NCBI GenBank assembly: GCA_965237525.1
Contig: CBDEFO010000008.1
Span: 384,001 to 448,000, forward strand
DNA: 64,000 bases
From: Candidatus Latescibacterota bacterium
GTDB taxonomy: Bacteria > Latescibacterota > CBDEFO01
Direction: 5' to 3'
Made by a program: the position numbers and the translations under genes. Positions 6,991-27,059 of this stretch are shown here, piece after piece; the first letter of the stretch is position 1, and the number at the start of each line of letters is the position of its first letter. The notes beneath the pieces are model-generated. The model was not told the origin of the DNA. It saw only the letters and a list, made by a program, of their open reading frames with translations, and ran no database searches.

Positions 6991-7059
6991 AACGGTCAAG
7001 TTTAGAATATCAAGGACCGTTATACAAAATCGCATTGAAGCGATATGGGCTTGACGACC

Positions 7060-8500
7060 TCAGACGGGCAACTGCATCTGCGGTTCGCGCCGCAAGCCCG
7101 CCACGCTCGGCGTATTGAACCGCTTGCCTTCGACGATCTCTGCAACGGTGAGCATCTGCATCCTGGGGTAAGGAATGCCCAACACCTCAAGATCGCCCGC
7201 CTCGGCCATGAAGCGGTTGAAGTTCCGCGCCTTTGTCTCGCCTAGCGGCTCCATAATGATGAGCCCGGCCATGAGCGCGTCGTTGTTATCGAGTACGCCC
7301 AGGAGCGAGCGAAGGACGATGATTCCCACGTTCTTTCCGCCCTTGACCTCTATCACAAGGCTTTGCAAGTCTCGCTCGCCTAGGGCAGGCACGGCGAAGT
7401 AAAGGCGGCCGTCGATCCCCTCCGTCACCCGTAGGCCGCGACGTCACGAACCCATCCACCTGTTCGACGACCCACTTCTGAAACTGATACTTGTCGCGCT
7501 TCCATAGATCGCGTGCACCCTCCAGGTTGCGCGGTATGCCTTCGATAACGTAGTCCTTGCCAGCCTCCAGGCCGCAACGCTCCTGCAAGCGCTTTTGCGC
7601 GACTCGCTTGACGGCGTGAATGGCGATGTCAATGCCGATCCATCGCCGCCCAAGATGGTGCGCTGCTTCGAGCGTAGTGGCGCATCCGCAGAATGGGTCT
7701 AACACAAGGTCGCCTGGGTTGCTAGAAGCCTTGATAATGCGCTCTAACAAGGCTACTGGCTTCTGGGTGGCATAACCCATGCGCTCTTTGGATTGCGAGT
7801 GTAGATAGGGCAAATCCCACACATCATCCATTTTGGTGCCGCGCGCAGTATCTCGGCCTCCACGCAAATCCGTCTTGCCGTCAACACTCATAGAACGGTG
7901 GATCGTTTTTTCGCTGTAGGGTTGAAACTGGGTATTGAATACGGCCTGTTTCCCACTGCCATAACGCAATACAGTATCATGCATTCGTTGGAAATGTCTG
8001 TGGCCGGAAGGCCATCTCTTGTAATGCCAGATAATCTCGTTCCCAAAGTTCCGGTGTCCAAATATCGCGTCCATAAACACCTTGATGTAATGGCTGGCCG
8101 TCGGGTCGCAGTGCAGATAAATACTCCCCGTCGGTTTCAAGATTGACTTCATATAGAGCAGGCGTTCAGTCATGTATGATAGATAAGCCAAGAGGCGCGG
8201 CTGTGTGTTGCGCAGCGCAGTCATCCATAACCGCCAGAAATCCACAGTCGCATCGTCAATACCCGCCTCGCGCATCAAAACCGGCATGGTACGTATGGCG
8301 CGTTCGCGGTCGTCATCTAGCTCCCAGGTGTCGCAAAACGCCTCTACCTGATCGGGTAGCGGGCGTCCGGTTTCGTCCTTGTAGATGGCGTTGTAAGATC
8401 GGTTGGAGTTGAACGGCGGATCAAGGTAAATCAGATCCACGCTTGAAAATGGCATGTTCTGCATGATGGCAAGGCAATCGCCGTAGTAAAGCCGGTTCAT
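7060..8500 (-). pseudogene. Beta-class amino-methyltransferase fused to a C-terminal PD-(D/E)XK (Mrr-like) nuclease domain; +1 frameshift at about 7417-7420
   Basis: LIYLDPPF (motif IV), TQKP and LDPFCGCAT (motif I), then GIDG...IEVKGG in another frame; ATG overlaps the transposase TGA. Confidence 0.85.
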
Positions 8501-9372
8501 GCGAAGCACCCGCGCACGAAGGAGCCGAAGGCGTTGTCGTTCTCGCGCTGATTGTACTTGTAGCACGCCTCGGCAATGTAGAGGGGCATGTAGCGAGTGG
8601 AGTAATGATGATGCGACCCGTGCCACGCCCGCTTGATGAGCGACAATACGCCTTCTATCGTGCTCGTGTGGGCGAGACGTTGCGCGTAAGCCTTGCTATG
8701 GTCGATGACCAAGTGCCTAAACGCCCTCTCGATTGCGCGATAGCCCCTGTATTCGTCTGTGAGATCAGAAGGGAACCATCGGGGGTCCACAGTGCTCTTG
8801 ATGAACCGCAGGAGAGCCTTGCCCGTGAGGCCTTTGGCAACCTGCGCAACAACCCGCCCGCCGCGTTCTACAACGCCGACCACCGGGGTCTTACGCGTTC
8901 CGCGTCCGCGCGGGTTATTCCGAGGGGAAGTAGGTGAAACGTGGCGGGGGCGTCCGCCCACATAGGTCTCATCAACTTCGACGATGCCTCGAAGCAGGCC
9001 AGCTTGCGCAGAACCCATCTGCGCTCGGATGCGCACTTGCATGTAAAGAGCGGTGGACTGCACCAAGTTGAGGTCGCGGGCCAGTTGATGACTTGACAGG
9101 CTTTTTTTGGCGTTTACCATGAGGCCAATGCACAGGAACCACTTTTGGAGCGGTATCTTGGTGCCGCAAAAGACGGTGTTAGCTAGAACATTGTAGCTGC
9201 GATGGCAAGCGTGGCAGTTCCACCGGCCTATACGCTCTCCGTCTATCTTGCGCGCCACGCGGACGCTATCACAGTGCGGACAGTGCGGTTCGCTGTGCCA
9301 GCGCACCTTCTCAAGGTGCTCGATGCAGGCTTCCTGATTGGGGTAGCGGCTGAAGATGGTGAGTAAGTTCAT
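8497..9372 (-). CDS. IS1595-family DDE transposase
   Basis: Zn ribbon CPHC...CHAC, SSHQLARDL HTH, EVDETYVGG, TDEY, HTSTIEG, YIAEACYKYN; GGAGGA RBS. Confidence 0.92.
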   Translation of the reverse strand: MNLLTIFSRYPNQEACIEHLEKVRWHSEPHCPHCDSVRVARKIDGERIGRWNCHACHRSYNVLANTVFCGTKIPLQKWFLCIGLMVNAKKSLSSHQLARDLNLVQSTALYMQVRIRAQMGSAQAGLLRGIVEVDETYVGGRPRHVSPTSPRNNPRGRGTRKTPVVGVVERGGRVVAQVAKGLTGKALLRFIKSTVDPRWFPSDLTDEYRGYRAIERAFRHLVIDHSKAYAQRLAHTSTIEGVLSLIKRAWHGSHHHYSTRYMPLYIAEACYKYNQRENDNAFGSFVRGCFA

Positions 9373-9391
9373 GGCTTGTCCTCCTGCATCT

Positions 9392-9420
9392 AATATAGCA
9401 CGCGCCCTACAGAAAGTCAA
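9392..9420 (-). promoter_or_regulatory. Sigma70-type promoter for the element A operon, -35 overlapping the TIR
   Basis: TTGACT-17 bp-TATATT with an extended -10 TG. Confidence 0.65.
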
Positions 9421-9603
9421 GCCCATATCGCTTCAATGCGTAGTATCTAGAAGGACATACGAAGAACTCATACGGTCTGTCAGTCATTATCCTAATCATT
9501 TATGCTTACCCAGATGCAGAAGTATACCTTATTCATGTGTTTAACATCAGAAACAATCAGTCTAGGGAAATACTAGTATCCCTTATAAACGGAGGATAAC
9601 GCC

Positions 9604-10736: not shown

Positions 10737-12359
10737 CGCATTGAAGCGATATGAGCTTGACGACCTCAGACGGGCAACTGCGTCTGTGGTTCGCGTCGCA
10801 AGCTCGCCACGCTCGGCGTATTGAACCGCTTGCCTTCGACAATCTCTGCAACGGTGAGCATCTGCATCCTGGGGTAAGGAATGCCCAACACCTCAAGATC
10901 GCCCACCTCGGCCATGAAGCGGTTGAAGTTGTGCGCTTTCGTTTCCCCCAACGGCTCCATGACGATGAGCCCAGCCATGAGCGCGTCGTCATTGTCGAGC
11001 ACGCAACGCAACGCGCGAAGGTCGTGGATGCTGACGTTCTTGCCGCCCTTGACTTCGATGACCATGCTTTGTAGCTCGCGTTCTCCTGGCACGTCGCAGT
11101 AAACACGCCCGTCAATACCGCCGTCGCCCGTGCGCCGCGATGTTACAAAGCCGTCTACCTGTTCGACGGCCCACTTTTGGAAGTGATACTTGTCTCGCTC
11201 CCATAGGTCGCGCGGTATGCCTTCGATAACGTAGTCCTTGCCAGCCTCCAGGCCGCAACGCTCCTGCAAGCGCTTTTGCGCGACTCGCTTGACGGCGTGA
11301 ATGGCGATGTCAATGCCGATCCATCGCCGCCCAAGATGGTGCGCTGCTTCGAGCGTAGTGGCGCATCCGCAGAATGGGTCTAACACAAGGTCGCCTGGGT
11401 TGCTAGAAGCCTTGATAATGCGCTCTAACAAGGCTACTGGCTTCTGGGTGGCATAACCCATGCGCTCTGAGCCTAGCGCGGGGCCGATGTCATGCCAAAT
11501 GTCATTCGGGGCTATTCCCTTGCCGGGCCTCTGCTTTCTCCAAACCACATCGTCTATAAACTCTAATTCGCCTTCTTCGTCTAAGGTAATAAGGCGGTCT
11601 TTGCTTGTAGTCCATCCCGATTTGTGAGGTGGGTATATCCCTTTGTATTCATAGCAAAGATTGGGGCGCTCACCTAGTCCGGGTGGACGAAATGGGCTCC
11701 TTCGCTTGTAGGGGCCTTTCTCATCGAGGCAAGGAAAGTCTGTCTCTATGTTTTTGTATGGGGTCATGATTTCAGTCCTTGTAACTCTATGCCCCCCCCG
11801 ACTTTGAGTAGAAAAGAACCCTATCGCTTGACCGCCCAAAGCCCTTTGCCTTGTGTTGGCTCCCTTTTCCAGCGCCTTTAATTCGCTCCCATGCGATTTC
11901 GTTCCTGAAGTTGTCATGCCCGAATATCGCATCCATTAGCACCTTGATGTAATGGCTGGCCGTCGGGTCGCAGTGCAGATAAATACTCCCCGTCGGTTTC
12001 AAGATTGACTTCATATAGAGCAAGCGTTCAGTCATGTATGATAGATAAGCCAAGAGGCGCGGCTGTGTGTTACGCAGCGCAGTCATCCATAACCGCCAGA
12101 AATCCACAGTCGCATCGTCAATACCCGCCTCGCGCATCAAAACCGGCATGGTACGTATGGCGCGTTCGCGGTCGTCATCTAGCTCCCAGGTGTCGCAAAA
12201 TGCCTCTATCTGATCGGGTAGCGGGCGTCCGGTTTCGTCCTTGTAGATGGCGTTGTAATATCGATTGGAGTTGAAGGGCGGATCAAGATAGATCAGATCC
12301 ACGCTCATCAACGGCATGCTTTGCATGATAGTAAGGCAGTCGCCGTAGTAGAGCCGGTT
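10737..12359 (-). mobile_element. One-ended relative of element A (element A')
   Basis: TIR at 10737-10761 matches element A at 24/25 positions, followed by a paralogous methyltransferase-nuclease gene; no transposase or second TIR seen. Confidence 0.8.
10766..12359 (-). pseudogene. Paralogous methyltransferase-PD-(D/E)XK fusion with a different target-recognition region; frameshift at a G8 tract (11792-11799)
   Basis: N- and C-terminal blocks are near-identical to 7060-8500 while the centre is unrelated; the ATG of MNRLYYGD is missing. Confidence 0.85.
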
Positions 12360-12974: not shown

Positions 12975-13898
12975 TCAGGAGTCTTCAGCAACTCCTTCGT
13001 CTTCGTCGCGTTCTGGGTTTTCTGTACTTGTTCGTTCGCCTTCGTTGTCTGTTGCATTTTCTTCTCCTTTACTCCCGTCCAATCTTGCGGAATAATTGTC
13101 GTCCTGGTGAGGATCGATAAACTTTCTAATCGCATTCCACAGGGACCTTATGTTATCCGAGGGGTCTTCGACTCTTGAAAAAAGTTTTTTTGCCTCAATT
13201 CTGTCGATTACAAATCCATGGGCAGGATAACCTTCTACTAACGAATTAACCGTACTAAGACTTGCATTTCCCCCTCGTTCCACCAGTCTTTGCCCGTATG
13301 CCTTGGCAACATTCAGATCCCTTAAGTCGCTTCCTAAAGCCTCTGGATCGATTTGCGCATAGACAGGCTGCATAACCGCTGTAGCAATATTTGACGCAAT
13401 TTTAGATGCGACCTCAAAGCTGACCGAGTGTCGGCTTTGGGTCGTTATAGCCCACCTCACCTGTTCATATATGGTTAACGTTTCATCCGCTAATCCTGCA
13501 AGTGCCGTCCGAACTATCAGGCCTGATCTTCTTTGCCCAATTTCATCTCGTTTTACGAGTTGCACATCGAGCGGGCCAAGTTCAGCTAATTCGTCCATCA
13601 TAATTATATTGGCACCTAATGCGATAATTGTTCCCGCACTTTTACATCTGGTTGGGACAAATAGGTAAAAGGTTTTAAAGGTAGTCTGGAACAGCCTTGC
13701 TATTTTATAAGCAATATGCGCACTTCCTCCATTTGTTGCCAGAATTAGAAAGACATTATCTTTAGGCTCATCAGATGAATATATGGATTCCATTAGACGC
13801 AGCATGCTGTCCTCATCAATGGGGCCTGTATATACAGCAACATGGGCGTCGAGATCGGCGGAAACTACGTTAGCAGCTTCTCTGATTTTAGGGTGCAT
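12975..13898 (-). CDS. SDH-family ClpP/SppA-fold serine protease
   Basis: LILATNGGS, CKSAGTIIALGA, ELGPLDVQ, YPAHGFVID. Confidence 0.85.
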   Translation of the reverse strand: MHPKIREAANVVSADLDAHVAVYTGPIDEDSMLRLMESIYSSDEPKDNVFLILATNGGSAHIAYKIARLFQTTFKTFYLFVPTRCKSAGTIIALGANIIMMDELAELGPLDVQLVKRDEIGQRRSGLIVRTALAGLADETLTIYEQVRWAITTQSRHSVSFEVASKIASNIATAVMQPVYAQIDPEALGSDLRDLNVAKAYGQRLVERGGNASLSTVNSLVEGYPAHGFVIDRIEAKKLFSRVEDPSDNIRSLWNAIRKFIDPHQDDNYSARLDGSKGEENATDNEGERTSTENPERDEDEGVAEDS

Positions 13899-14133
13899 TT
13901 TGTTTGTCCTGTTGTGCATGCCACCTGGCGCTGGCAGCCGTCTGTGCAATCTCAGTGCGCCTTTCGTCCGTTATTTTGCCATGCAGAGCCGCAGCACCAG
14001 CCTTACCGCCCTTGACCTTGTTCGGCTGCTTGTACCCCTCATCTTCAACCTCACCCGTGGCTATCTTAGCTACCTTTACTGCACAGCCGACCGCGTCCGC
14101 AGGCCGACGCACTCCTCTTGGTCCTTTAGGCAT
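13888..14133 (-). CDS. Small basic protein of the type often found beside IS1-like transposases
   Basis: MPKGPRG..RPAD..G.AVKV..IATGE...GGKA.A....ERR.EIA..AA.ARW pattern, recognised from memory. Confidence 0.7.
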   Translation of the reverse strand: MPKGPRGVRRPADAVGCAVKVAKIATGEVEDEGYKQPNKVKGGKAGAAALHGKITDERRTEIAQTAASARWHAQQDKQNAP

Positions 14134-14312
14134 CCGGAGCAACCTCCCTTGAAGTTTGGGGAGCCAATAATATCAGGGCCATCATTCTCAATGACAAGCT
14201 AAATCTAACCTGGTTCCCCATTTCAACCGAAAGGTGGGTGGTAAATGGTTTACTTAATAAACCTTTTCTTGTCAAGGGCAAAAAAAGTGTAGGTGAATTC
14301 CCCCTAGGCCAA

Positions 14313-14331
14313 TTCAAACTGAGACACTACC
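14313..14331 (-). mobile_element. Isolated IS1-like terminal repeat
   Basis: Reverse complement GGTAGTGTCTCAGTTTGAA; it marks the compositional junction next to the terminase 3' end. Confidence 0.5.
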
Positions 14332-14366
14332 GGCTTGTCTAATGTAAGTGAAACGGTGTAAGCCCC

Positions 14367-15290
14367 TTATATTGTCATCCAGTTATAGTTATCTTCTTTT
14401 TTCTGGTGAGTGCTTAAAGATTCCCAATTAACGGTTTTATCGTAGGGAGAACTTATGTTAGTAAGTGCCTTCTCACAAGCATCCCATACGTCGTAGTGAT
14501 GACCTCCGCGTGGTCTCTCAACAGGGAAATCATACGCCTCATCCTTAAGTATCTCAGCACTGGAGGGCTTGACAAGAACCTGTTCCTCTCTAAAGAACGG
14601 CATGATAGACCTTATACGCGCTATCTTGTCAGTAGATTCAACTATGATCTTCTTGTCAATATATATCTCCCTCTTAAGCTCCTCTACTCTTAACCACTGC
14701 AAGACAGCATCCATAGCGTTCTTCTCAAAGATAAACCTCGGTCTATTAAACTTCTCCCTAAGGACAAAAATAAGCTCTATAGCATCGACAACATCTATCC
14801 TGACCTTTGTTATATCATCGAGGTACTTCTGTCCGTTCCACTGCATATGAAGAGGAACAAACGCCGAGAAGTTTGATCTCTTGTTCTTGGTGAATCCCAG
14901 GTCTACACCTATTGTCGTAGCAACGGGTATCCGAGTATCTCCTGTTTCATCTACTTTCGATAAGTAGCCATTCCCACCAGACGTAGGATGCTTCTCAAAG
15001 TCAAGATCGTGATAGTGAGATAGATAGCTCTCTGGAATCTCTATATCGTCAGACCCCCTTGACCTATTTTCATACTCCCTGTAATAAGTCTTGAGATTGT
15101 TTCGAAGTTCATAGTCCTTCTTGATCTGAGCTATCCGCGCATTGCTAAATTTCTTAGGCCAGATACTCTGTCCATTCTCATCAATATTCCTGTAGAATAG
15201 ACCCTGCCACATCATTCCAGGTTTAGACTTAGGCAAATCATCAGCATATCTTTGACCTACCTGTCTGCCAGTGGCAGCCTTCCAAAGATT
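14367..15290 (-). pseudogene. terL: Phage terminase large subunit, C-terminal (nuclease) part
   Basis: IWPKKF, YYREYEN, IGVDLG, IFEKN and HYDVWDA motifs; in frame with 17810-18465 once the IS is removed. Confidence 0.88.
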
Positions 15291-15312
15291 GGGAATAATA
15301 TACTTAACGCCA

Positions 15313-15993
15313 CTAAATGATTCTCGTGCGTTTCTCGTATAGTCGGCCTATCTCATCTGATTTGACCCTGAACTTAACCCCGTGATCTCTCACCGCGCCT
15401 GATTCCTTGATGTATGCATCGAAGTCCACTATCACGAGGCCCCTTTCAATCGACCGCATGAGGCCCGACAGCTTGATTTGTTCGTAGGCCGTGGCGTGTT
15501 CGTATTTCACTTGACGTGGATTCCGCTTTATTTGCCCCGTTACAAGAATCAGACGGCTCAACTTCCTGCCCGCCGCGTTCAGTAGATCGTCTTCCGTCCA
15601 GCAGACCTCCGGATTCATCCCTTCTTCATGGCGCACCCAAATAGACCCGGCATCGTAGGCGATGTTGAAGCCCCTGTCTGATTCGCCCTCGATTGTATGT
15701 CGAAAGGATGGGCGTCCGTTCCTTCCCTTCCAGCCGAATTTGTTGATGATGAACTTCATCGAGCCTTTGGGCCTTGGCGTCTTGTGAAATAGCGTAATGA
15801 GCGCGGTGCCGCTTGAGTATTTCAACTCGAAGGTTCCGGCGTCGGGAATGTCCACGTTTGAGGTTTCGAGGCCCAGGAGACTTTCGAGAAGACGACCTGG
15901 TGCGCCGGAGCCTTGATAGTCGCTCGGTAAATCCCGCCATCCGCTCTTGCACAATTCCCGCACTTGGTCGAACAGGGCCGTTCTCGAGGTCAT
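15313..15993 (-). CDS. MvaI/BcnI-family restriction endonuclease
   Basis: G..G.LLESLLGL...N..IPD...FELK, LITLFHK.P and RDHG.KFR signature. Confidence 0.85.
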   Translation of the reverse strand: MTSRTALFDQVRELCKSGWRDLPSDYQGSGAPGRLLESLLGLETSNVDIPDAGTFELKYSSGTALITLFHKTPRPKGSMKFIINKFGWKGRNGRPSFRHTIEGESDRGFNIAYDAGSIWVRHEEGMNPEVCWTEDDLLNAAGRKLSRLILVTGQIKRNPRQVKYEHATAYEQIKLSGLMRSIERGLVIVDFDAYIKESGAVRDHGVKFRVKSDEIGRLYEKRTRII

Positions 15994-16802
15994 TTCAGTT
16001 TCCGATACGCCGCCAGCCTCTCATCCGCTAGGCGACAATATCTTTTGCTCTTTTCGATACCGATCCATTCCCTTCCCTCAGATTCCGCCGCGATCGCGGT
16101 CGTGCCGCTTCCCATGAAGGGGTCAAGCACGATTTTCCCCGTGGTGGAGCCGATGCACCTTTGAGCTAACTCCGTAGGGAATGGGGCAGGATGGGGGTTG
16201 TTGGATTCTTGGGGGATTTCCCAGATGTCGCCGACGGCGTTCGCCTTGGGAGCAAGCTGAAACTCCGGCTTGGCGATAAGGTAAATGACTTCGTAGGTGG
16301 GGAGAAAATAGCCTTTGTTGAAATTGATGCCGCCCTTGCGTCGCCAGATGATGATCTGGCGGACGGGGAAGTCCTCAACGATATCGCTCCGGTCTTGGAG
16401 AAAGCCGCCTTGGACGCGCCACTTGTGGTTGTAGAAAATAGCCCCGCTCTCCTTGATTAGTCGCATCATGGCCTTGAGGCCTTTCCTTTGCCACTTCACG
16501 TACTCATCATGCGGCATACAATCTTCGTGTTCCTCGTAGCCCTTAATGAGCGCGGCATTCGGCCACTTGCCACCGCTCCCGTTCTTCATGCCGTTTCCAG
16601 TGGATTGCTTGAGGTTGTAGGGTGGAGAGGTAACGATCAAGTCGATGGAAAGCGCGGGGATTTTGTTCATCAATTCGACAGTATCCCCTTCATGCACCTT
16701 GCCGAGCCATCGGCTCATCGCGTTTTCGGAAAGGGTCTGCGCTCCGGCTTTCAGCAATCCATCGAACGACAAGGGGATTTGTACCCTTTGCGCGTTGGTC
16801 AT
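15990..16802 (-). CDS. Beta-class N4-cytosine/N6-adenine DNA methyltransferase
   Basis: IVTSPPY, HPAPFP, VLDPFMGSGTT; ATGA overlaps with both neighbouring genes. Confidence 0.92.
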   Translation of the reverse strand: MTNAQRVQIPLSFDGLLKAGAQTLSENAMSRWLGKVHEGDTVELMNKIPALSIDLIVTSPPYNLKQSTGNGMKNGSGGKWPNAALIKGYEEHEDCMPHDEYVKWQRKGLKAMMRLIKESGAIFYNHKWRVQGGFLQDRSDIVEDFPVRQIIIWRRKGGINFNKGYFLPTYEVIYLIAKPEFQLAPKANAVGDIWEIPQESNNPHPAPFPTELAQRCIGSTTGKIVLDPFMGSGTTAIAAESEGREWIGIEKSKRYCRLADERLAAYRKLK

Positions 16803-17716
16803 GTAATCAAAGCCTTGTAGGTCAAGCGGGAGCCAAAGCCGCTTTCGAGCATAGAATCCATGCGCTGGCCGCCAGCGGAGCCATTCAGGTTCCATCGGAA
16901 GGCAAACTCTGAGAGGTAGCGGTTCAGGTGCTTCCATGAGAACTGGTGAAACACGCCATTGTAGCCGCGCTTGAGCATTGACCAGAAGCTCTCGATTCCG
17001 TTCGTATGGGCCTTGTCCCGCACATATTCGCCCATGATGTGAACAACGAACTCATGGTCATAGAACTCACCCAAGCCCCTGTAACTTCGATGATCGTCCG
17101 TGTAAACCGTGGAGCCTAGCAACACGTTATCTTCGATGAATCCGACCATCGTGTTCCTGTCTGTCATGGAAATCTTCTGCGCGAACACATTACCTTCACG
17201 CGAGCGCACGCCGATAGCGACATCCTTGCCCGCAGGCCCGCGTCCGGCCTTGGCCTTCTTGGAGTTGTGCTTGTTCTTCTCTTTGCCGCCCAAATAAGTT
17301 TCGTCCGCTTCCACTTCCCCGTTCATGGGCGGGGAGTTTTCGAGCGCGGTTTCAGCCGCCTTGCGGAGACGCCCGAGCATGAACCACGCCGTCTTTTGAC
17401 TCACGCCCACTTCCCGCGCTAGTTGATAGCTACTGATTCCCTTGCGGTTCGAGGTAACGAGCCAAGCGGCCATAAACCACTTGCGGAGAGGAAGTCTTGA
17501 TTCCTCATAGATCGTGCCCTTGCGGATACTGAACTCATCCCCGCAATCTGAGCACTTGTAGACGCCTACACGCTTGCGGCTGTAGATTTTCCCAGCGCAT
17601 CCGCACAAGGGACATATCTTTCCGGCGGGCCAGCGAAGTTCTTCAAGGTGGGCCACGCAAGCGGCCTCATCTGGGAAGGCTTCTAGCATTTGAAGCAGTG
17701 TGTCATAATTCTTCAT
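16799..17716 (-). CDS. IS1595-family DDE transposase (intact)
   Basis: CPLC...CSDC, GISSYQLAREVGVSQKTAWFML, EADETYLGG, YTDD, HTNGIESFW, YLSEFAFRWN. Confidence 0.95.
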   Translation of the reverse strand: MKNYDTLLQMLEAFPDEAACVAHLEELRWPAGKICPLCGCAGKIYSRKRVGVYKCSDCGDEFSIRKGTIYEESRLPLRKWFMAAWLVTSNRKGISSYQLAREVGVSQKTAWFMLGRLRKAAETALENSPPMNGEVEADETYLGGKEKNKHNSKKAKAGRGPAGKDVAIGVRSREGNVFAQKISMTDRNTMVGFIEDNVLLGSTVYTDDHRSYRGLGEFYDHEFVVHIMGEYVRDKAHTNGIESFWSMLKRGYNGVFHQFSWKHLNRYLSEFAFRWNLNGSAGGQRMDSMLESGFGSRLTYKALIT

Positions 17717-17809
17717 GTCTTGATTCTCCGCAATTTAGTGGTGTTCTGTCAAGCAACCCTATACCACTAATATATTGCATTATGCGGTGGTGTCAAGTAT
17801 ATTATTCCC

Positions 17810-18465
17810 CAAAGATTAGATAATAAAGATTCCTCATGTAGAACGGTCCCTCCTATAACTATTTTACCCTCATAGGAAGGCAATACAGTTCCATCAAGCC
17901 AGTCAGATAACTTAGCTCTTGAGTCAGCAGTTCCAGTATTAGCCTCATTTTCCAGATCGTCACATATTATAAGATCAGGTCTCTTTCCTAACTTTAGAGA
18001 CCCTCTCACTTGTTGACCAGCACCTTTAGCCCTAATAGTAATCCCATTAGAAGTTACTATTTCCTTCTCAGTCCACTTGCCAACCCCTAAGCCATCCCAA
18101 TTCCTCTTAGCTACAAAATTACCAAAGAGTTTGATTACGAGCTTATTAGTCTCCATCTCATTTTTAGCAGCCTCTAGAAAGTCAACAGAAGCTGGCAGGG
18201 TATCAGATATTATCATGATAAACTCACGCTCTTCAAAGAGAGCCTGATGTAAGATATAGACAAAGCTGAGTATTGTAGACTTGGCACGTGCTCGCGGGGC
18301 TACATAGATAGACCTCTCGTGATTTTCGAGTATATGACTATATATTTCCTTGTGGAAGTTAGGCACACCATATTTCTTCTGTATCCTATGAGGGAATAGA
18401 ATCATAGAGAACAGTGCAAGATCATCGTGCAGTTTCTTGAGATTGGTGTTCCCTATTGCTGTCAA
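17810..18465 (-). pseudogene. terL: Phage terminase large subunit, N-terminal ATPase part
   Basis: Walker A-like APRARAKST, GAGQQVRG, Walker B RPDLIICDDLE, GTVLH. Confidence 0.9.
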
Positions 18466-18881
18466 GGCACCTTCCTGTCGGTAAAAGTGATATTTCCCTG
18501 ATCTGCCCTGCGATCCAGAATCTTAACTTTCTTTTTTACTTCGTCACGCCATCCCTTATATGGACCTGGATTATCAATCAAGATTAGATTCAGGATTATG
18601 TCGCTCGCTACATGTATGGATTCAGGGTAGTCTATCTTGTATGTAACCTCGTTATTGGCTACTAACTTATTGAATACTATGTCTAAGGGTGAGGACTCCT
18701 GATCCTTATCACACACATTTACAGTCAGACGAAAAGCACCATTGTCACCATCCCTAAGTTTGTAGGATATCCTCACTTCCCTTGCCTGTGTTATCCGGTG
18801 TATCAAGTTCTTTAGCTGGAGGGGAGTCAGGGAATTCATCTTCTTTGCCATCATCTTCCTCGTGAAGTACGAACTCTGCAT
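18462..18881 (-). CDS. Phage hypothetical protein between putative terS and terL (start uncertain)
   Basis: Stop overlaps the terL start (TTGA); same AT-rich composition. Confidence 0.55.
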   Translation of the reverse strand: MQSSYFTRKMMAKKMNSLTPLQLKNLIHRITQAREVRISYKLRDGDNGAFRLTVNVCDKDQESSPLDIVFNKLVANNEVTYKIDYPESIHVASDIILNLILIDNPGPYKGWRDEVKKKVKILDRRADQGNITFTDRKVP

Positions 18882-19497
18882 CTTCTATCCTATCCCCAAG
18901 TCCTCGTAAAAGGCTATCCCTATCCTCATTTGTCTTAAGAACATCTTCTCTATAAGACTTGAGAGCTCTAAGAGCTTCCAGTTGACTAGGCTTATTACCT
19001 TCTTCTACCATACGTTTTAAATTAGTGAGGAAATACTTATCATCAATATTTAGCTCGCTCAGCATTCCCTTCATTCTTTTTTCTATTTCAGACTGCACAT
19101 CCGGTTGATTAAACACTCGCCTAGCCCTCTTTTTCCAAGAGTCAGTATTAGTGGTATATACCCTAGAAAACGCCTTATAAACGTCGAAGAAAATAGTATA
19201 CTGACGAGCAAATTCTTTGCGCTTGATAGTAGTGTGGATTTGTTTGGGATCGGATTTAGGCTCATGGGTCTTATCAATATACATTCCCTTTCTGGCCCTT
19301 ACCATATACTGACCCGTAATGGTACACACAAAACCTGGGGCAATCTTAAGTACCTCAAGAACTTTGCCACAGTCAGAGATAACCCAATCACCTGGCTGGC
19401 CAAGCCTCCAGTCTCTCTTTACATCAAGTTGATTGTCATGAGTGGCTTCTATCAGGTTCTCGTAAACCTTGCGCCCTTTTACCAGTTTCATATCCAT
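18754..19497 (-). CDS. Putative phage terminase small subunit
   Basis: Upstream of terL; HTH-like KRKEFARQY...KAFSRVY...VFNQPDVQSEI followed by a helical oligomerisation-like region. Confidence 0.55.
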   Translation of the reverse strand: MDMKLVKGRKVYENLIEATHDNQLDVKRDWRLGQPGDWVISDCGKVLEVLKIAPGFVCTITGQYMVRARKGMYIDKTHEPKSDPKQIHTTIKRKEFARQYTIFFDVYKAFSRVYTTNTDSWKKRARRVFNQPDVQSEIEKRMKGMLSELNIDDKYFLTNLKRMVEEGNKPSQLEALRALKSYREDVLKTNEDRDSLLRGLGDRIEDAEFVLHEEDDGKEDEFPDSPPAKELDTPDNTGKGSEDILQT

Positions 19498-19636: not shown

Positions 19637-20184
19637 ATGGAAATATCAGCTAATATTTTATGTGGAGACTGCACTCGAACAGTTAAAAGAGCTTAATGAT
19701 AATTCGATAGACCTCATCATTACATCTCCACCCTACACTGATCAGCGGAAAAATACTTATGGCGGTATACATCCAGATAAGTATGTTGAGTGGTTTTTGC
19801 CAATATCAAAAGAGTTGCTCAGAGTTATGAAGCCAACAGGTTCATTGATTCTGAATATAAAGGAACTTGCAGTAACAGGAGTCTAAGAGTGGAAGTGGCT
19901 TTGGAAGGAACAGGTCTAGTTGGTTAAAAAGAGATATGGTTTATCCAACAAATGTGCTGCATATGGCAGTAGAAACTCATAATAAGAATCATAGTGCTGC
20001 TTTTCCTGAATCGCTTCCTGAATGGGTTATTAAGCTTCTTACCGAAGAGAACGATGTTGTTTTAGATCCGTTTATGGGGTCTGGAACAACTATTAAAGTG
20101 GCTCAACGTCTTAAACGAAATTCAATAGGAATTGACATTCAAAAATCCTATTGCGATATGGTTTCTGAAAGTATCAAACAGTGA
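19637..20184 (+). pseudogene. Degenerate beta-class DNA methyltransferase
   Basis: IITSPPY and HSAAFP/VLDPFMGSGTT lie in separate ORFs; 5' frameshift and missing central region. Confidence 0.8.
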
Positions 20185-20217
20185 AAAAACTTTACATAAT
20201 AAAAGGGAATTATATAC

Positions 20218-20246
20218 TTGACTCCACCTAATTCTTTCAGTATCTT
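20218..20246 (+). promoter_or_regulatory. Sigma70-type promoter with -35 inside the element C TIR
   Basis: TTGACT-17 bp-TATCTT, then a GAGGGGG RBS. Confidence 0.6.
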
Positions 20247-20269
20247 TACTCGGTAACGAGGGGGTGTAT

Positions 20270-21198
20270 ATGTCAAGTAAGACTCTGAGTTTATTTGAGT
20301 TAATGCAGATTTCCCCAGATGCCAAAAGCGCGAGAGAATATCTCGAATCAAGAGGATGGAAGGAACATACCATTTGCCCGCTCTGCGGTGATTATGAGCG
20401 CATCACCGCGAGAGGCGGGAAGCGCACTGGATATTATCGCTGTCGCGACTGTAACGAAGAGTTCACTGTGCGCACCAAAACCATCTTTGAGCGTTCCCAT
20501 GTTCCTCTTCATAAGTGGATATACACCATGTACATGGTGGTTACGGCTCGGAAAGGCGTCTCTTCCCTTCAGATGTCCAAAGAGATTGGCGTCACTCAGA
20601 AGACGGCGTGGTTCATGTTGCAGCGCCTCCGGGAAGCATGTGGCGACGATCTCTCGAAGCTGAATGGCATCGTTGAAATAGACGAACCCTATGTTGGCGG
20701 CAAGGAGGCCAACAAGCACGCATCGAAGAAGCTCCGAGCGGGGCGGGGAACAGTGGGGAAACAGGCCGTCTTGGGTTTTCGCGAGCGTGATGGCAAGTCA
20801 GTGGCGCGTCCGATTGCAGGCACGAACAGTGCCGTTCTTCATCGAGAAGTCGCCAAGACGGTTGAGTTGAGTTAGGCTCTGCGATTCATACTGACGACCA
20901 TCTCGGCTATCAGGCGCTTCTCGGCTATATTCACAAGCACATCCGTCACGGTGCAGGGGAGTATGTAGGCTCTGGCGATGTTACAACCAACAGCGTCGAG
21001 AGCATGTGGGCACTTTTCAAGCGCGGACTCTATGGCACATGGCATCAGGTCAGCCGGAAACATCTGGCGCGATATGTGAACGAATGCACGTTCCGCCTGA
21101 ATGAGGGCAATGTCAGATTCGATACCAAGGATCGACTGAACAGCTTCGCTGATCGCGCCTTTGGCCGTCGTCTCACCTATGCAAGGTTGACTGCGTGA
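20270..21198 (+). pseudogene. IS1595-family transposase, frameshifted by a 5-bp tandem duplication
   Basis: CPLC...CRDC, GVTQKTAWFML, EIDEPYVGG; GTTGA-GTTGA at 20861-20870; continues HTDD...TNSVESMW...YVNECTFRLN. Confidence 0.9.
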
Positions 21199-22274
21199 GC
21201 CCTCTACGAAAGCAAGTTCCAAAGGAGCTTGATCGAATTGTCGATCAAGTGCTTACCTACAACTGTCCAGCAGACAGGTCGGAAGACTTCCGCTTCATCG
21301 ACCTGTTCGCCGGGATCGGCGGAATGCGCCGCCCGTTTGAGGAAATCGGCGGGCGTTGCGTGTTCACGTCAGAGTGGGATCGGTTCTGCAAGGAAACCTA
21401 CACCGCGAACTTCCCGGAGCCAGCAGACAGCGATCACGAGTTCATTGGTGACATACGGCCTTGTGCGGTGAATCCGGAAACCGTGCCGACACATGATGTT
21501 GTGTTGGCCGGGTTCCCGTGCCAACCGTTTTCGATAGCCGGTGTGTCGAAAAAGAATTCGCTCGGTCATCCTCACGGCTTCCTGTGCGATACGCAGGGAA
21601 CGCTCTTCTACGATCTGGCAAAGATCATCGACTACCATCGGCCCTCGGCCTTTCTCCTTGAGAATGTGAAGAACCTTGCCCGGCATGACGGTGGTCGGAC
21701 ATTCACAACAATCATGCAGGTTCTTGAAAGTGAGCTTGGCTACAATGTGAGCACCCGAATCGTGAATTCCTCTCCGTGGGTCCCACAGAAGCGCGAACGG
21801 ATTTTCATGGTAGGGTTCAGGCAAAAGACGGCCTTTGATTTCGACGAACTGGCAATACCGACAGGTTGTGCACCGACTCTCGGAGCCATCCTCGATACGG
21901 ATGTTGACCCCAAGTACACACTCACCAAGCACATGTGGAATTACCTTCAGGGCTACAAGAAAAAGCATCGGGACGCAGGCAACGGGTTCGGCTATTCGCT
22001 GTTCGGCCCTGATGATGTTGCCCGCACTCTCTCTGCCCGCTACCATAAGGACGGATCGGAGATACTCATCAGACACAGGGGCAGGCGTCCCCGCCGCCTG
22101 ACCCCGCGAGAATGCGCACGTCTGATGGGATTCGAGAAACCCGGCAAGGCTGAGTTCAGGATTCCGGTGTCCGACACCCAAGCCTATCGACAGTTCGGCA
22201 ACGCCGTGGTTGTTCCCACTGTGCGGGCCGTGGCCCGACTCATGAGGCCCCACATTTCCATGAACCAGGCGTGA
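21195..22274 (+). CDS. dcm: DNA (cytosine-5) methyltransferase, Dcm/M.EcoRII-like
   Basis: FIDLFAGIGG, GFPCQPFS, LLENVKN, PQKRERIF, RTLSARYHKDGSEIL, QAYRQFGNAV. Confidence 0.95.
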   Translation: MSPLRKQVPKELDRIVDQVLTYNCPADRSEDFRFIDLFAGIGGMRRPFEEIGGRCVFTSEWDRFCKETYTANFPEPADSDHEFIGDIRPCAVNPETVPTHDVVLAGFPCQPFSIAGVSKKNSLGHPHGFLCDTQGTLFYDLAKIIDYHRPSAFLLENVKNLARHDGGRTFTTIMQVLESELGYNVSTRIVNSSPWVPQKRERIFMVGFRQKTAFDFDELAIPTGCAPTLGAILDTDVDPKYTLTKHMWNYLQGYKKKHRDAGNGFGYSLFGPDDVARTLSARYHKDGSEILIRHRGRRPRRLTPRECARLMGFEKPGKAEFRIPVSDTQAYRQFGNAVVVPTVRAVARLMRPHISMNQA

Positions 22275-22285
22275 CCAACTGATTC

Positions 22286-22759
22286 ATGGCTGCCGATAGT
22301 GTGACGCCGGATGTTCGCAGTCGGATGATGGCCGGGATCAGGGGCAAGAATACGAAACCGGAGTTGGCAATCCGGTCTGCATTGCATTGCCTCGGTTTCC
22401 GGTTTCGCCTACACCGCAAGGATCTGCCGGGAAAGCCCGACCTAGTGTTCGCGAAGCACAAGGCGGTGATTTTCGTTCACGGGTGTTTCTGGCACGGCCA
22501 TGACTGCCACCTGTTTAAATGGCCGAAGACCAAGGGTGAATTTTGGAAACAGAAGATCAATTCAAACATCGCGCGGGATCGCAAGCAGCTATTGGCCCTC
22601 GCGGACAGCGGATGGCGTGTGGCGGCGATCTGGGAATGCGCTCTCAAAGGCCGGACGCGCCTTCCGATTGAGGTAATCGCAGAGCGTTGCGCGATTTGGC
22701 TGGAATCGAACGAAAACGAACTGAGGTTGAGCGGTGATGAAACGTGGACAGCTGCGTGA
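22286..22759 (+). CDS. vsr: Very short patch repair endonuclease
   Basis: RSRMMAGIRGKNTKPE, LPGKPD, FVHGCFWHGH, IWEC. Confidence 0.95.
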   Translation: MAADSVTPDVRSRMMAGIRGKNTKPELAIRSALHCLGFRFRLHRKDLPGKPDLVFAKHKAVIFVHGCFWHGHDCHLFKWPKTKGEFWKQKINSNIARDRKQLLALADSGWRVAAIWECALKGRTRLPIEVIAERCAIWLESNENELRLSGDETWTAA

Positions 22760-23967
22760 CTATTTTGCTGGGGTGGGCGTAAAGAGGCTGTCTGCCGTGG
22801 ATGCCGACTCTACAAGATCAAGATCAAACCAGCACGAGGTGGGTACCACGTTAGACATGCGACGTCAGTTTCTTGGCGAGGATGATAAAACCCGATTTCC
22901 GGTGGTTTATGTCTGGCTGGGTCAGGAGCAGGACGGCTTTACAGCCCAAGGCGATGCGACTCATTACGATGCACGGGCAATGAAGACCGACCGGGGACCG
23001 GAGTGGCGTCTCTACTATTCTTCCAATCCGGTCACGGAAGCCATGCAGAAAGGCGACACGCTGTTTCTGGCGTTGACAACCGACCGGGTTCTCTACTTTG
23101 TCGTCGCGCCGGCAGGCTCGACCAGCGAACGGGAACTCTCCTGGCTCTTTAGTTTACACCCCGCTGGGATATCCTTCGTGTCGCGCGAGTTCGACGACGA
23201 CGAGCGGGAACTGGACTTTGCAGCCCGTTTCCTATTTGACGAGATTGGAATGGAGTTCGAGGAGCGGGACGCGGACAGACTTGACAGCATCATCGACAGG
23301 TTCGGCACGGCGTTTCCGAAAACTGTGGAGTTCTCGGATCTTGCCCGCCGTACCCTGTCTGAGGTTAGGGCCGAGGACGATCCCGATATAGCGCTTGTGG
23401 CTTGGATAGACCACGAGGAAGCGCTGTTTCGGCGTCTTGAACGACGGATTGTAGCGACACGTCTTGAGGAAGGATTTATCGATGGGAACGGGACCGATGT
23501 GGACGGTTTCATGCGGTTCTCGCTGAGTGTCCAGAACAGAAGAAAGTCGCGCATGGGTCATTCTCTGGAGCATCATCTGGAGGAGGTATTTCGAGCCTAC
23601 GACATTACGCATGTTCGTGGTGCCGTGACTGAGAACAACCAAAAGCCGGATTTTCTGTTTCCCAGCAAGGAAGCCTATCGGGCCGCTCCGGAAACCGGCG
23701 ATGCATGCCTGACCATGTTGGGGGCCAAATCCACCTGCAAGGATCGCTGGAGGCAGGTCCTAGCCGAAGCGGCGAAGATACCGAGAAAGCATCTTCTGAC
23801 GCTTGAACGAGGCATTTCCGAGCCGCAGACAACCCAGATGGCGAATTCAAGACCTGCAACTCGTTGTACCGCAATCGCGTCAGGGTAGCTATACGGACGA
23901 CCAACGGGCTTGGCTTTGGAATCTTGCGGAGTTCATTCGAGACGTAGAGGCTCGCGCGTGCAAGTAG
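22737..23967 (+). pseudogene. EcoRII-like type II restriction endonuclease, +1 frameshift at about 23850
   Basis: SNQHE, QNRRKSRMGHSLE, KPDFLFP, GAKSTCKDRWRQVL; the alternative frame gives DLQLVVP...WNLAEFI ending at TAG 23967. Confidence 0.88.
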
Positions 23968-24317
23968 ATGCATGTTCGTACATGTTGTATTCGTGCCCCT
24001 GAACATTGTCTTGTCCTCCGTCTTTTCAAGCCATTCGTTTGGGAGTCAACTATATAATTCCCTATTAATTGAAGGAAGAGGAAGGAAGATGATTTATGGG
24101 CATATTTCTAATCACCATTTCCTTAATACTGATTTACATAACAAGGTACGCATGGAACCATCCGCTGAATAGACCTCAAGCATTTCGATTTATGAGAAAG
24201 GTTTCTCTTCTTTCCATTGGGTTATTAATTGTCGGAATTTATGTAGCATTTAAGTGATTTTATGCATGGAATTAGTGAAATCCGGTTTGGATAAGCTATC
24301 CCAAGAGAGGGATAACA

Positions 24318-24752: not shown

Positions 24753-26906
24753 CTAATTCACGGTGTTCTTGAAGTCCACAGTCCTGCCCTGACCGTCAGT
24801 CAGTCGCCCATCGTCCAGGACCTGGAGCAGGACGTTAAAGACATCTTGGTGCGCCTTTTCTATCTCATCCAACAATATGAGCTGATATGGACGCCTGCGC
24901 ACAGCTTCGGTCAACTGTCCGCCCTCTTCGTAGCTGACGTACCCCGGAGGCGCGCCGATCATCCTGGACACAGAGTGCTTCTCCATATATTCGGACATGT
25001 CAATCCTGACCATAGCCCCCTCATCGTCGAAGAGGAACTCGGCTAAAGCCCTTGCAAGCTCCGTCTTGCCCACGCCCGTAGGTCCCAAGAACAGGAACGA
25101 ACCTATGGGCCTCTTCTGGTCTCCCAATCCGACTCTGTTCCTGCGAACGGCGTTGGACACTGCCTCGACGGATTCGTCCTGCCCGATGACCCTTTTGTGG
25201 AGTCTGCCCTCCATATGAGTCAGCTTTTCTACCTCGCCCTCCAAGAGCCTGGAGAGGGGGATCCCCGTCCACTTGGCGACGACCTCGGCAACTTCCTCAT
25301 CGCTTACCTCCTCCCTTATTAAGGGCTTATGCTCCTGAATCTTTAGAAGCTTGTTATTTTCCGCCCCTAATTGTTCTCCAAGCTCGATCTGTTCTCCGTA
25401 TTTTAACCTTGCCGCCCGTTCGTAGTCACCTTCCCTTTCCGCTTCAGCCTCCTGGATCTTGACCTGTTCTATGCGCTCCTTGATCTGGCGTATCCTGGCC
25501 ACGACCTCCTTTTCCCGCTCCCACTGGCTCTTCAGAACACTTCTCTCCTCGTTCAGATCGGCCAATTCCTTCTCGATAGGCTTCAACCTCTCCGCAGCAT
25601 CCTTTTCCCTCTTTACGGCCTCGCGCTCGATCTCAAGCTGTCTCAACTTCTTTTCGATGACGTCCAACTCTTCGGGCATGCTGTCTATCTCGATCCTCAG
25701 TTCAGCCGCCGCCTCGTCGATCAGATCTATCGCCTTATCTGGCAGAAAACGATCCGTGATATACCTCTCCGAGAGGAGAGCCGCGGCCACCAGCGCCGAG
25801 TCCTCAACCCTCACGCCGTGATGAATCTCGTACCTCTCCTTAAGACCCCTTAAGATAGATACCGTATCCTCAACCGAAGGCTCGCTTACCAGTACGGGCT
25901 GAAATCTCCTCTCCAGTGCGGCGTCCTTCTCCACGTTCTCACGATATTCATCCAGCGTAGTCGCCCCGATGCACCTTAATTCCCCCCTTGCAAGGGCCGG
26001 CTTGAGCATGTTGGAGGCATCCATCGACCCCTCTGCTGCTCCCGCACCCACTATGGTGTGCAGCTCATCTATAAACAGGATGATGCTCCCACCGGCCTTC
26101 TCAACTTCCTTTAGAACGGCCTTTAACCTATCCTCAAATTCGCCCCTGAACTTTGAACCAGCGATCATAGATCCGAAGTCCAAGGCCACGACCTTCCTGT
26201 CCTTCAATGACTCAGGCACGTCCCCTGAAACGATCTTCTGAGCAAGACCCTCAGCTATAGCCGACTTGCCCACGCCCGGCTCTCCTATCAGTACAGGATT
26301 ATTCTTTTTCCTCCTGCTTAGTACCTTAATCACGCGTCTTATCTCATCCTCACGCCCTATAACGGGATCGAGTTCCCCCTGCCTTGCCAGCTCGGTTAAG
26401 TCCCGGCTGTATCTTTCTAGCGCCTGGTACTTCGACTCAGGATCGGGATCTGTCACCCTTTGACCTCCTCTTATCTTGGTCAACACATCAAATATCTTGT
26501 CTTTACTTACACCCAGCGACCTCAATATCCTTCCGCCCGGCCCATCATAGCCCTCGTCAGCGATAGCGATTAAAAGATGCTCTGTGGATATGAACTCATC
26601 CTTTATCCTGTCTGCCTCTTTCTCCGCAGCTCTCAATACTCTATTTAAGCCCTGACTCAGATAGGCCTGTCCCGTCCCGCCGTACATCCTCGGCAGGCGG
26701 TCCAGCTCGTCCACAACCTGTGACTTTACGACTGCCGGGTCTATATTCAACTTGCTCAAGATCTGCGGCGCAACACCGTCCGATTGATCCAACAGGGCAT
26801 ATAATAAATGTTCAGCTTCAATTTGACTTTGATTTCGATCCTCCGCATCCCTCTCTGCCGCAACGACAGCCTCCCGGGCTTTTTCTGTGAACTTATCGAT
26901 GTTCAT
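24753..26906 (-). pseudogene. clpB: Chaperone ClpB, C-terminally truncated (717 aa)
   Basis: Clp-N domain, GEPGVGKS, coiled M domain, GPTGVGKT; ends abruptly at [11 protein letters not shown] at the island junction. Confidence 0.9.
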
Positions 26907-26935
26907 GGGATAGATACCTTTTTTCCTTACACATG

Positions 26936-27059
26936 GGAAATTGCTTCGGGGCTTCGCCCCTTGCAATGACTAAGGGTGAAAGCCAAGCGATGTCATTGCG
27001 AGGCGGCGTGGCCGCTTTGCTGGCGAGGCAACAAGCCACGAAGTGCGAGAAGCAATCTC
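26936..27059. repeat. Inverted pair of GATTGCTTC...GCAATGAC palindromic repeats (BIME-like)
   Basis: ATTGCTTCGGGGCTTCGCCCCTTGCAATGAC and GTCATTGCGAG...GAAGCAATCTC; degenerate copies at 33918-33988 and 59983-60064. Confidence 0.7.

Follow-up and report, generated by a model that had tools for sequence, protein, structure and literature searches.

In a 64,000-nucleotide stretch of a Candidatus Latescibacterota genome (assembly GCA_965237525.1, contig CBDEFO010000008.1, positions 384,001 to 448,000; hereafter, the window), a gene for a phage terminase large subunit (terL) is interrupted by an element of the IS1595 family. We consider it probable, at roughly 85%, that this is an IS1595 transposon with a predicted type II restriction-modification (RM) pair, likely self-moving into A/T-rich 8-bp sites, which disrupted the terminase gene of a remnant phage, itself likely defective before the insertion. 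The features of the locus are as follows, in window positions; insertion sequence is abbreviated IS and open reading frame ORF.

15291..17809, minus strand: IS1595-family transporter IS (tIS) with transposase, methyltransferase and endonuclease genes, 2519 bp, 54% GC (repeats, duplication, domains, motifs)
17787..17809, minus strand: left terminal inverted repeat (TIR), 23 nt, overlapping the -35 box of a predicted inward promoter
15291..15313, plus strand: right TIR, 21/23 complementary, adjoined by the endonuclease stop
15283..15290, plus strand: 8-bp target-site duplication CAAAGATT, copy 1
17810..17817, plus strand: 8-bp target-site duplication CAAAGATT, copy 2
17769..17796, minus strand: predicted sigma70-type promoter (consensus match only)
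16799..17716, minus strand: IS1595 DDE transposase, 305 aa, N-terminal zinc ribbon, open frame (PF12760, PF12762, NF033547, motifs)
15990..16802, minus strand: N4/N6 DNA methyltransferase, likely 270 aa (PF01555, PADLOC MTase_II, motifs, ATGA overlaps)
15313..15993, minus strand: MvaI/BcnI-family restriction endonuclease, 226 aa (PF15515, homologue alignment, PDB 2oa9/2odh)
17818..18465, minus strand: terL N-terminal part, residues 1-216 (phrog_38, alignment)
14367..15290, minus strand: terL C-terminal part, residues 217-523 (phrog_38, alignment)
18462..18881, minus strand: 139-aa ORF between terS and terL, no known family (no Pfam or PHROG match)
18754..19497, minus strand: terminase small subunit, terS (phrog_51; PF03592 below cut-off)

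An initial annotation, made from the letters alone, had described a transposon in terL with an exact 8-bp duplication, and the ends bear it out. The 23-nt inverted repeats are complementary at 21 of 23 positions and CAAAGATT abuts both of them, the chance match of a given 8-mer at the local composition being ~1.4e-5. The element is single-copy in the assembly, and its GC content of 54% compares with 42% in the surrounding phage DNA. All three inner ORFs are open, have Pfam or NCBIfam matches above cut-off (PF12762+PF12760/NF033547, PF01555 and PF15515) and follow each other on the minus strand in the order transposase, methyltransferase, endonuclease. ATGA overlaps occur at both gene joins, and the endonuclease stop codon touches the inner edge of the right repeat. 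The element has one transposase, and both passenger ORFs, placed between it and the right end, are wholly enclosed by the inverted repeats. Because of these overlaps and the end-to-end layout, the three genes would form a coupled operon. It may be driven by a single promoter, as a near-consensus sigma70-type sequence (11/12 consensus bases) begins in the left end and reads inward.

Excision of the element together with one CAAAGATT copy gives a single open frame of 523 codons with one terminal stop, as the initial annotation had stated. The two terL halves match consecutive positions of the phrog_38 (terminase large subunit) profile, 270-458 and 468-718. A search with the C-terminal half returned seven proteins, three of which are 523 aa long and 81-83% identical to it; both halves tile these natural homologues with zero gap and zero overlap, and P0122 (97%) reads through the junction uninterrupted. 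The rejoined terminase is thus colinear with single TerL homologues, the point on which the initial annotation had staked its interpretation.

The transposase scores 142 bits against PF12762 (cut-off 27) and 192 bits against NF033547 (curated cut-off 75). It harbours VEADETY at 135, TDD..SY at 206, NGIESFW at 239 and YLSEFAFRWN at 267, with two CxxC motifs from 35; the catalytic series and the zinc ribbon (PF12760) of the IS1595 pattern in PMC12561309 are both present. By analogy with IS1595 relatives, the enzyme would make 8-bp staggered cuts, probably via a circular copy, a circular intermediate being known for MTnSag1 (PMC5704250).

In the methyltransferase, which matches PF01555 and is called MTase_II by PADLOC, an SPPY motif precedes a DPFxGSGT motif; its start is most likely at 16802, which gives 270 aa and an ATGA overlap with the transposase stop, and not at 16937. 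Residues E37, D51, E56 and K58 of the endonuclease are kept and are invariant across 29 aligned sequences, and they align with the catalytic region of R.MvaI and R.BcnI (D50/E55/K57 in MvaI numbering). Profile matches to R.MvaI (E 2.7e-29) and R.BcnI (1.3e-15) indicate a distant relationship in which the acidic and lysine catalytic positions align (PDB 2oa9, 2odh). With adjacent genes and intact catalytic motifs, the two proteins are predicted to form a type II RM pair. Systems of this type restrict unmethylated incoming DNA and kill after loss. The pair would accordingly be expected, on established type II RM biology, to restrict such DNA and penalise loss of the element, which would favour keeping at least one copy per lineage. 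CCWGG and CCSGG, the recognition sites of MvaI and BcnI, show observed/expected ratios of 0.83 and 0.75 in 78 RM regions, a mild depletion exceeded by that of other palindromes.

Further observations concern these proteins. GGWCC is the most depleted 5-base palindrome of the genome (G000; observed/expected 0.71) and a candidate site for one of its RM systems. The closest endonuclease, P0001 (91% identical), is on a 44,924-bp contig, and the contigs of close terL homologues are of like size. Both cargo methyltransferases open with a short additional peptide (window 16802-16740 and 21195-21270) that follows immediately on the transposase stop and is reminiscent of the small ORF of cargo-free IS1595 elements; it may be the slot where cargo fuses.

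Empty and alternative insertion sites

Eight public runs from four studies contain part of the window; we examined seven of them, as assembled contigs of mixed samples. X4 and X5 represent one sample, X1 comes from another study, and X6 and X3 are from different studies. The initial annotation had proposed looking for the reconstructed empty site, and the exact empty joint is present in X4, X5 and X1, hence in two studies: position 15281 is joined to 17809, a skip of 2527 nt that equals 2519+8. The filled site is found in X3, which bridges both junctions as in the window without any difference, and in X6, which bridges the left one. X6 has no cover over 17612-19315 and X7 provides pieces only, and such coverage holes carry no weight.

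The bridging contigs refute the idea that a repeat was chimerically joined into terL during assembly. The genome, with many frameshifted genes and ~20 related transposase loci, could invite such an error, but the element is single-copy and a chimera would not yield an exact 8-bp duplication; we regard an artefact as extremely improbable.

X4 and X5 contain the element itself, with 8 differences in 2000 nt (99.6% identical), next to a different right flank, and its left end also runs into other DNA. In X8, the element has a third flank. The 30-nt flank of X4/X5 has a single location in the genome, G000:C8:455665-455694 (30/30), within a spoVR-like host gene that is split; that of X8 likewise maps once, at 28/30, to C8:383652, an intergenic site also present in the same-genus genome G001. 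Both sites are element-free in G000, non-phage, and end in A/T-rich 8-mers. Given the exact empty site and the occurrence of the element, at 99.6% identity, with other flanks, we conclude that the element moved recently as one unit, which agrees with the earlier proposal of a recent joint movement of the three genes.

In a genome of 4.58 Mb, all three sites fall within 72 kb, pointing to local hopping or to a hotspot. No end-to-end circle joint is among the joints listed in the run contigs, which are assembled contigs only, and no clear replication landmark was evident from the GC skew at the hotspot. In X4, the sequence past terL is absent from G000 and G001.

Some side observations bear on these sites. 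C8:319-408 kb holds 6 of the 15 cargo-bearing IS1595 elements of the genome; together with all three element sites, the region spans ~140 kb (C8:319-456 kb). Beside the X4/X5 insertion site (L153:1531-1547 = G000:C8:455,695-455,711), 13 of 14 bases match those ending at the terL target, by chance or as a target-recognition motif. In X5, the last 66-76 nt of terL (window 14357-14432) are duplicated 2132 letters apart, the second copy being that of the window; this suggests that the window's terL end arose by deletion between repeats. Close by, at window 13888-14332, a basic ORF of 84 aa is accompanied by a motif at 14305-14330; single-copy in the genome and without family match, they are reminiscent of the small ORF and the terminus of a different IS-like element.

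Related elements in this and other genomes

Of 195 genome loci with a gene for the endonuclease, we analysed the best 80. The methyltransferase adjoins it in 78 of the 80, and the transposase is found upstream in 36, near full length in 30. Both ends with the same end consensus are present in 28 loci, 23 of which have an exact 8-bp duplication (23/80 overall; 88% A/T); the end motif occurs in 2 of 56 distal control windows. The 23 duplication-bearing loci span ~10 phyla, as grouped from record titles. Distance matrices computed for the three proteins over 34 complete elements are correlated (rho 0.51-0.59), and none of 999 permutations gave so high a rho, although kinship inflates such tests.

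The three-gene family also occurs in viral contigs, with both ends in 7 of 12 loci and an exact duplication in 2 of 12. Several of these loci are near packaging genes, and the two exact-duplication elements are near, not inside, terminase genes. GenBank phages gave one weak endonuclease match. Enrichment of related elements in phage genes had been suggested at the outset. No head, tail or terminase PHROG was found in 73 of 85 flank ORFs of 26 of 29 duplication-bearing elements (the 12 ORFs off locus ends were dropped), and a terminase tblastn over the 80 loci, with relatives of three terminase types as queries, gave no match. The relatives thus show no preference for phage genes, in their flanks or loci.

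In the genome under study, 15 of the 21 transposase loci are repeat-bounded with cargo. Seven of these are flanked by an exact 8-bp duplication. A DNA methyltransferase is present in 14 of the 15, and its partners include EcoRII-C and Vsr, EcoO109I, HNH, type IIG and two more type II endonucleases; a single genome therefore stocks 14 methyltransferase-bearing IS1595 elements of several RM types. G001 has 8 matches, vs 29 in G000. The possibility that this transposase lineage always carries RM genes was rejected, since, of 12 copies retrieved from G027, 10 have the same ends but no cargo and measure 1.2-1.3 kb. Copies in G003/G012 carry other ORFs, with no PADLOC match among the 8 scanned out of 17. 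One more IS1595 element, L004 (G000:C7:175441-179341), has an additional right end internally, besides an outer one that shows an exact duplication; it appears to have captured a 325-aa flanking gene.

A broader picture, which we put forward tentatively and think somewhat less probable than its opposite, would be that of an old autonomous family of RM transposons, whose three genes co-descend as one operon across ~10 phyla. Its members would travel from host to host on phage genomes and, inside a species, shift a single addictive copy from one site to another nearby, and IS1595 elements would be a main delivery route for the varied RM arsenal of this genome.

The phage relic and the surrounding island

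The phage genes at the locus are terS, the 139-aa ORF and terL only, and an unrelated stretch follows terL. Portal, head, tail and integrase genes were not found beside them in Pfam, PHROG and related-phage protein searches; in the related phage L136, portal and head genes come directly after terL. Proteins of nine related phage loci match terS, terL, a split head gene 42 kb away, the head gene of a cluster on C6 and methyltransferase/host-like proteins in the genome. No intact phage around terL was found, a search of viral contigs with the C-terminal half and a search of metagenome contigs both returning nothing. With P0118, nine distant phages were collected (26-35%), and a 50% protein library gave one close relative, P0123.

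The split SU10/phrog_1328 major head gene (L008:1738-3700, G000:C8:355.7-357.7 kb) lies between an IS1595 fragment and an IS1595-RM element and shares its head family with L136, whose terS and terL resemble those of the window. An inversion joining it to the terL relic was rejected, both island flanks being colinear with G001. The second phage cluster (G000:C6:441.6-462 kb; L147, L151) comprises an intact 520-aa terminase gene, host genes, and then portal, head, tail and amidase genes; it was rejected as a part of the same phage because its terminase has no significant match to P0118.

The initial annotation had proposed that the insertion blocks packaging by the resident phage and makes a defence locus of it. 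That the element hit a functional prophage, abolished packaging, was selected for this and turned the remnant into a defence locus is unlikely. The break does lie inside terL, the rejoined frame is free of stops, close terL homologues are on contigs of phage-like size (45, 46, 45 and 28 kb) and the island has several RM systems. However, nothing is left to package, the sole matching head gene is the split copy 42 kb away, and in X4/X5 the empty allele of terL is frameshifted at codon 275 by the loss of 1 bp (11 of its 20 listed substitutions change the residue, 7 of them in the last 20 codons). Moreover, the same element occupies non-phage sites in other samples, and the 73 flank ORFs of its relatives lack head, tail and terminase families. 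As for defence, the region already has two other TIR-bounded RM transposons and a truncated third. We call this scenario merely unlikely because the order of events is not fully fixed.

Alternatively, the element might have entered a phage genome first, in a free phage or another host, and arrived with a phage that then decayed around it. This agrees with the presence of the family in viral contigs, with both ends, exact duplications and packaging genes nearby as given above, and with the 91%-identical endonuclease on a 44.9-kb contig, the gene content of which was not seen. In X4, however, the contig with the empty terL has a depth of 13.3 and the element at the host site 13.4; equal depths fit one chromosome with both, and the relic can therefore reside without the element. 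In X5, the corresponding depths differ (6.9 and 11.4). We find arrival with the phage quite improbable, even more so than the selected disruption of a prophage.

Our favoured explanation remains the neutral insertion of a self-moving element into dead A/T-rich DNA, which would account for the site; decay probably came before the insertion. A/T-rich 8-mers are 1.7x commoner in the relic than on the contig, and the insertion would persist because phage DNA that is A/T-rich and dead is easily hit and carries no cost, not through selection on terL. The terminase is most likely an incidental target.

Several observations weigh against this account. The copies in X4, X5 and X8 have transposase residues 20-85 deleted in frame; the alternative sites rest on 30 flank letters each, in contigs of mixed samples; and the sampled organisms are assigned to the same species from 97-99.6% identity. 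X1 and X8 lack the terL frameshift where covered, and intact empty terL alleles therefore exist. In the wider family, no transposase match was found upstream in 44 of the 80 loci (6 of the 80 have <2.2 kb upstream), and the endonuclease tree contradicts 5 of the 16 transposase splits that have good support. Taken with the correlated distances, these conflicts indicate an old unit, mostly co-inherited with some exchange.

The relic is part of an island. In G001, a genome of one contig, the 17.8 kb between 6919 and 24759 are replaced by 5.1 kb of other DNA. Its other elements are:

7031..9440, minus strand: IS1595 element with the other end type and a methyltransferase passenger, no target duplication
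10737..12359, minus strand: truncated sister element with one end and a split methyltransferase, 96.7% identical to the element at G000:C8:357668-360222
20205..24062, plus strand: IS1595 element with a broken transposase, C5 methyltransferase, Vsr and EcoRII-C endonuclease, no target duplication

At the island edge, clpB (window 24753-26966, beside dnaK) is cut and codes for 737 aa, vs 881 aa in G001; for the C-terminal part that it lacks, the only match in the rest of G000 was a 37%-identical paralogue on C7. Window 19637-20184 contains a decayed methyltransferase gene, 88% identical to an intact one beside an EcoO109I-type endonuclease at C7:845 kb, and X4 has 275 other letters at its break.

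Comparison with known systems

By every feature that could be tested on its sequence, the element classifies as a tIS of the IS1595 family. Transporter ISs of this family were reportedly described by Siguier, Gagnevin and Chandler in 2009, and the element may belong to the ISPna2-like subgroup.

How RM systems move without an obvious vehicle is an old question. In 2010, Furuta, Abe and Kobayashi reported RM units flanked by inverted repeats, which had inserted with duplication of 8 bp and for which a relative had the site empty; what had moved them could not be identified (PMC2853133). A unit from Neisseria in that paper has 26-bp repeats and a COG3677 transposase that is likely inactivated. 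The transposases of those units are dead or missing and the mechanism is left open, whereas the transposase is intact here, and the present unit is seen with three different flanks and across ~10 phyla. With an intact IS1595 transposase, an exact empty site and three flanks in likely conspecific samples, RM movement therefore becomes testable with a 2.5-kb element. We found no description of this RM-carrying IS1595 family in the published literature searched, as judged from entries and the opening lines of abstracts; the supplementary tables of Furuta et al. may list such elements.

IS1595 elements generate 8-bp A/T-rich duplications (PMC5704250, PMC12561309). ISApl4, of the IS1016 subgroup, shares these duplications and the catalytic motif pattern; unlike the element described here, which has a zinc ribbon and two passengers, it is 712 bp long and cargo-free, with a 654-bp transposase gene (PMC12561309). 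Among the closest parallels are the IS1595 transporter ISs MTnSag1/tISSag10 and tISCpe8, with which the element shares a DDE transposase, ~25-bp repeats, an 8-bp duplication and internal passengers (PMC5704250). Their cargo is a resistance gene, whereas here a methyltransferase-endonuclease pair is joined to the transposase by ATGA overlap. The element is thus a new member of an already described kind, and its value lies in the population-level evidence of movement.

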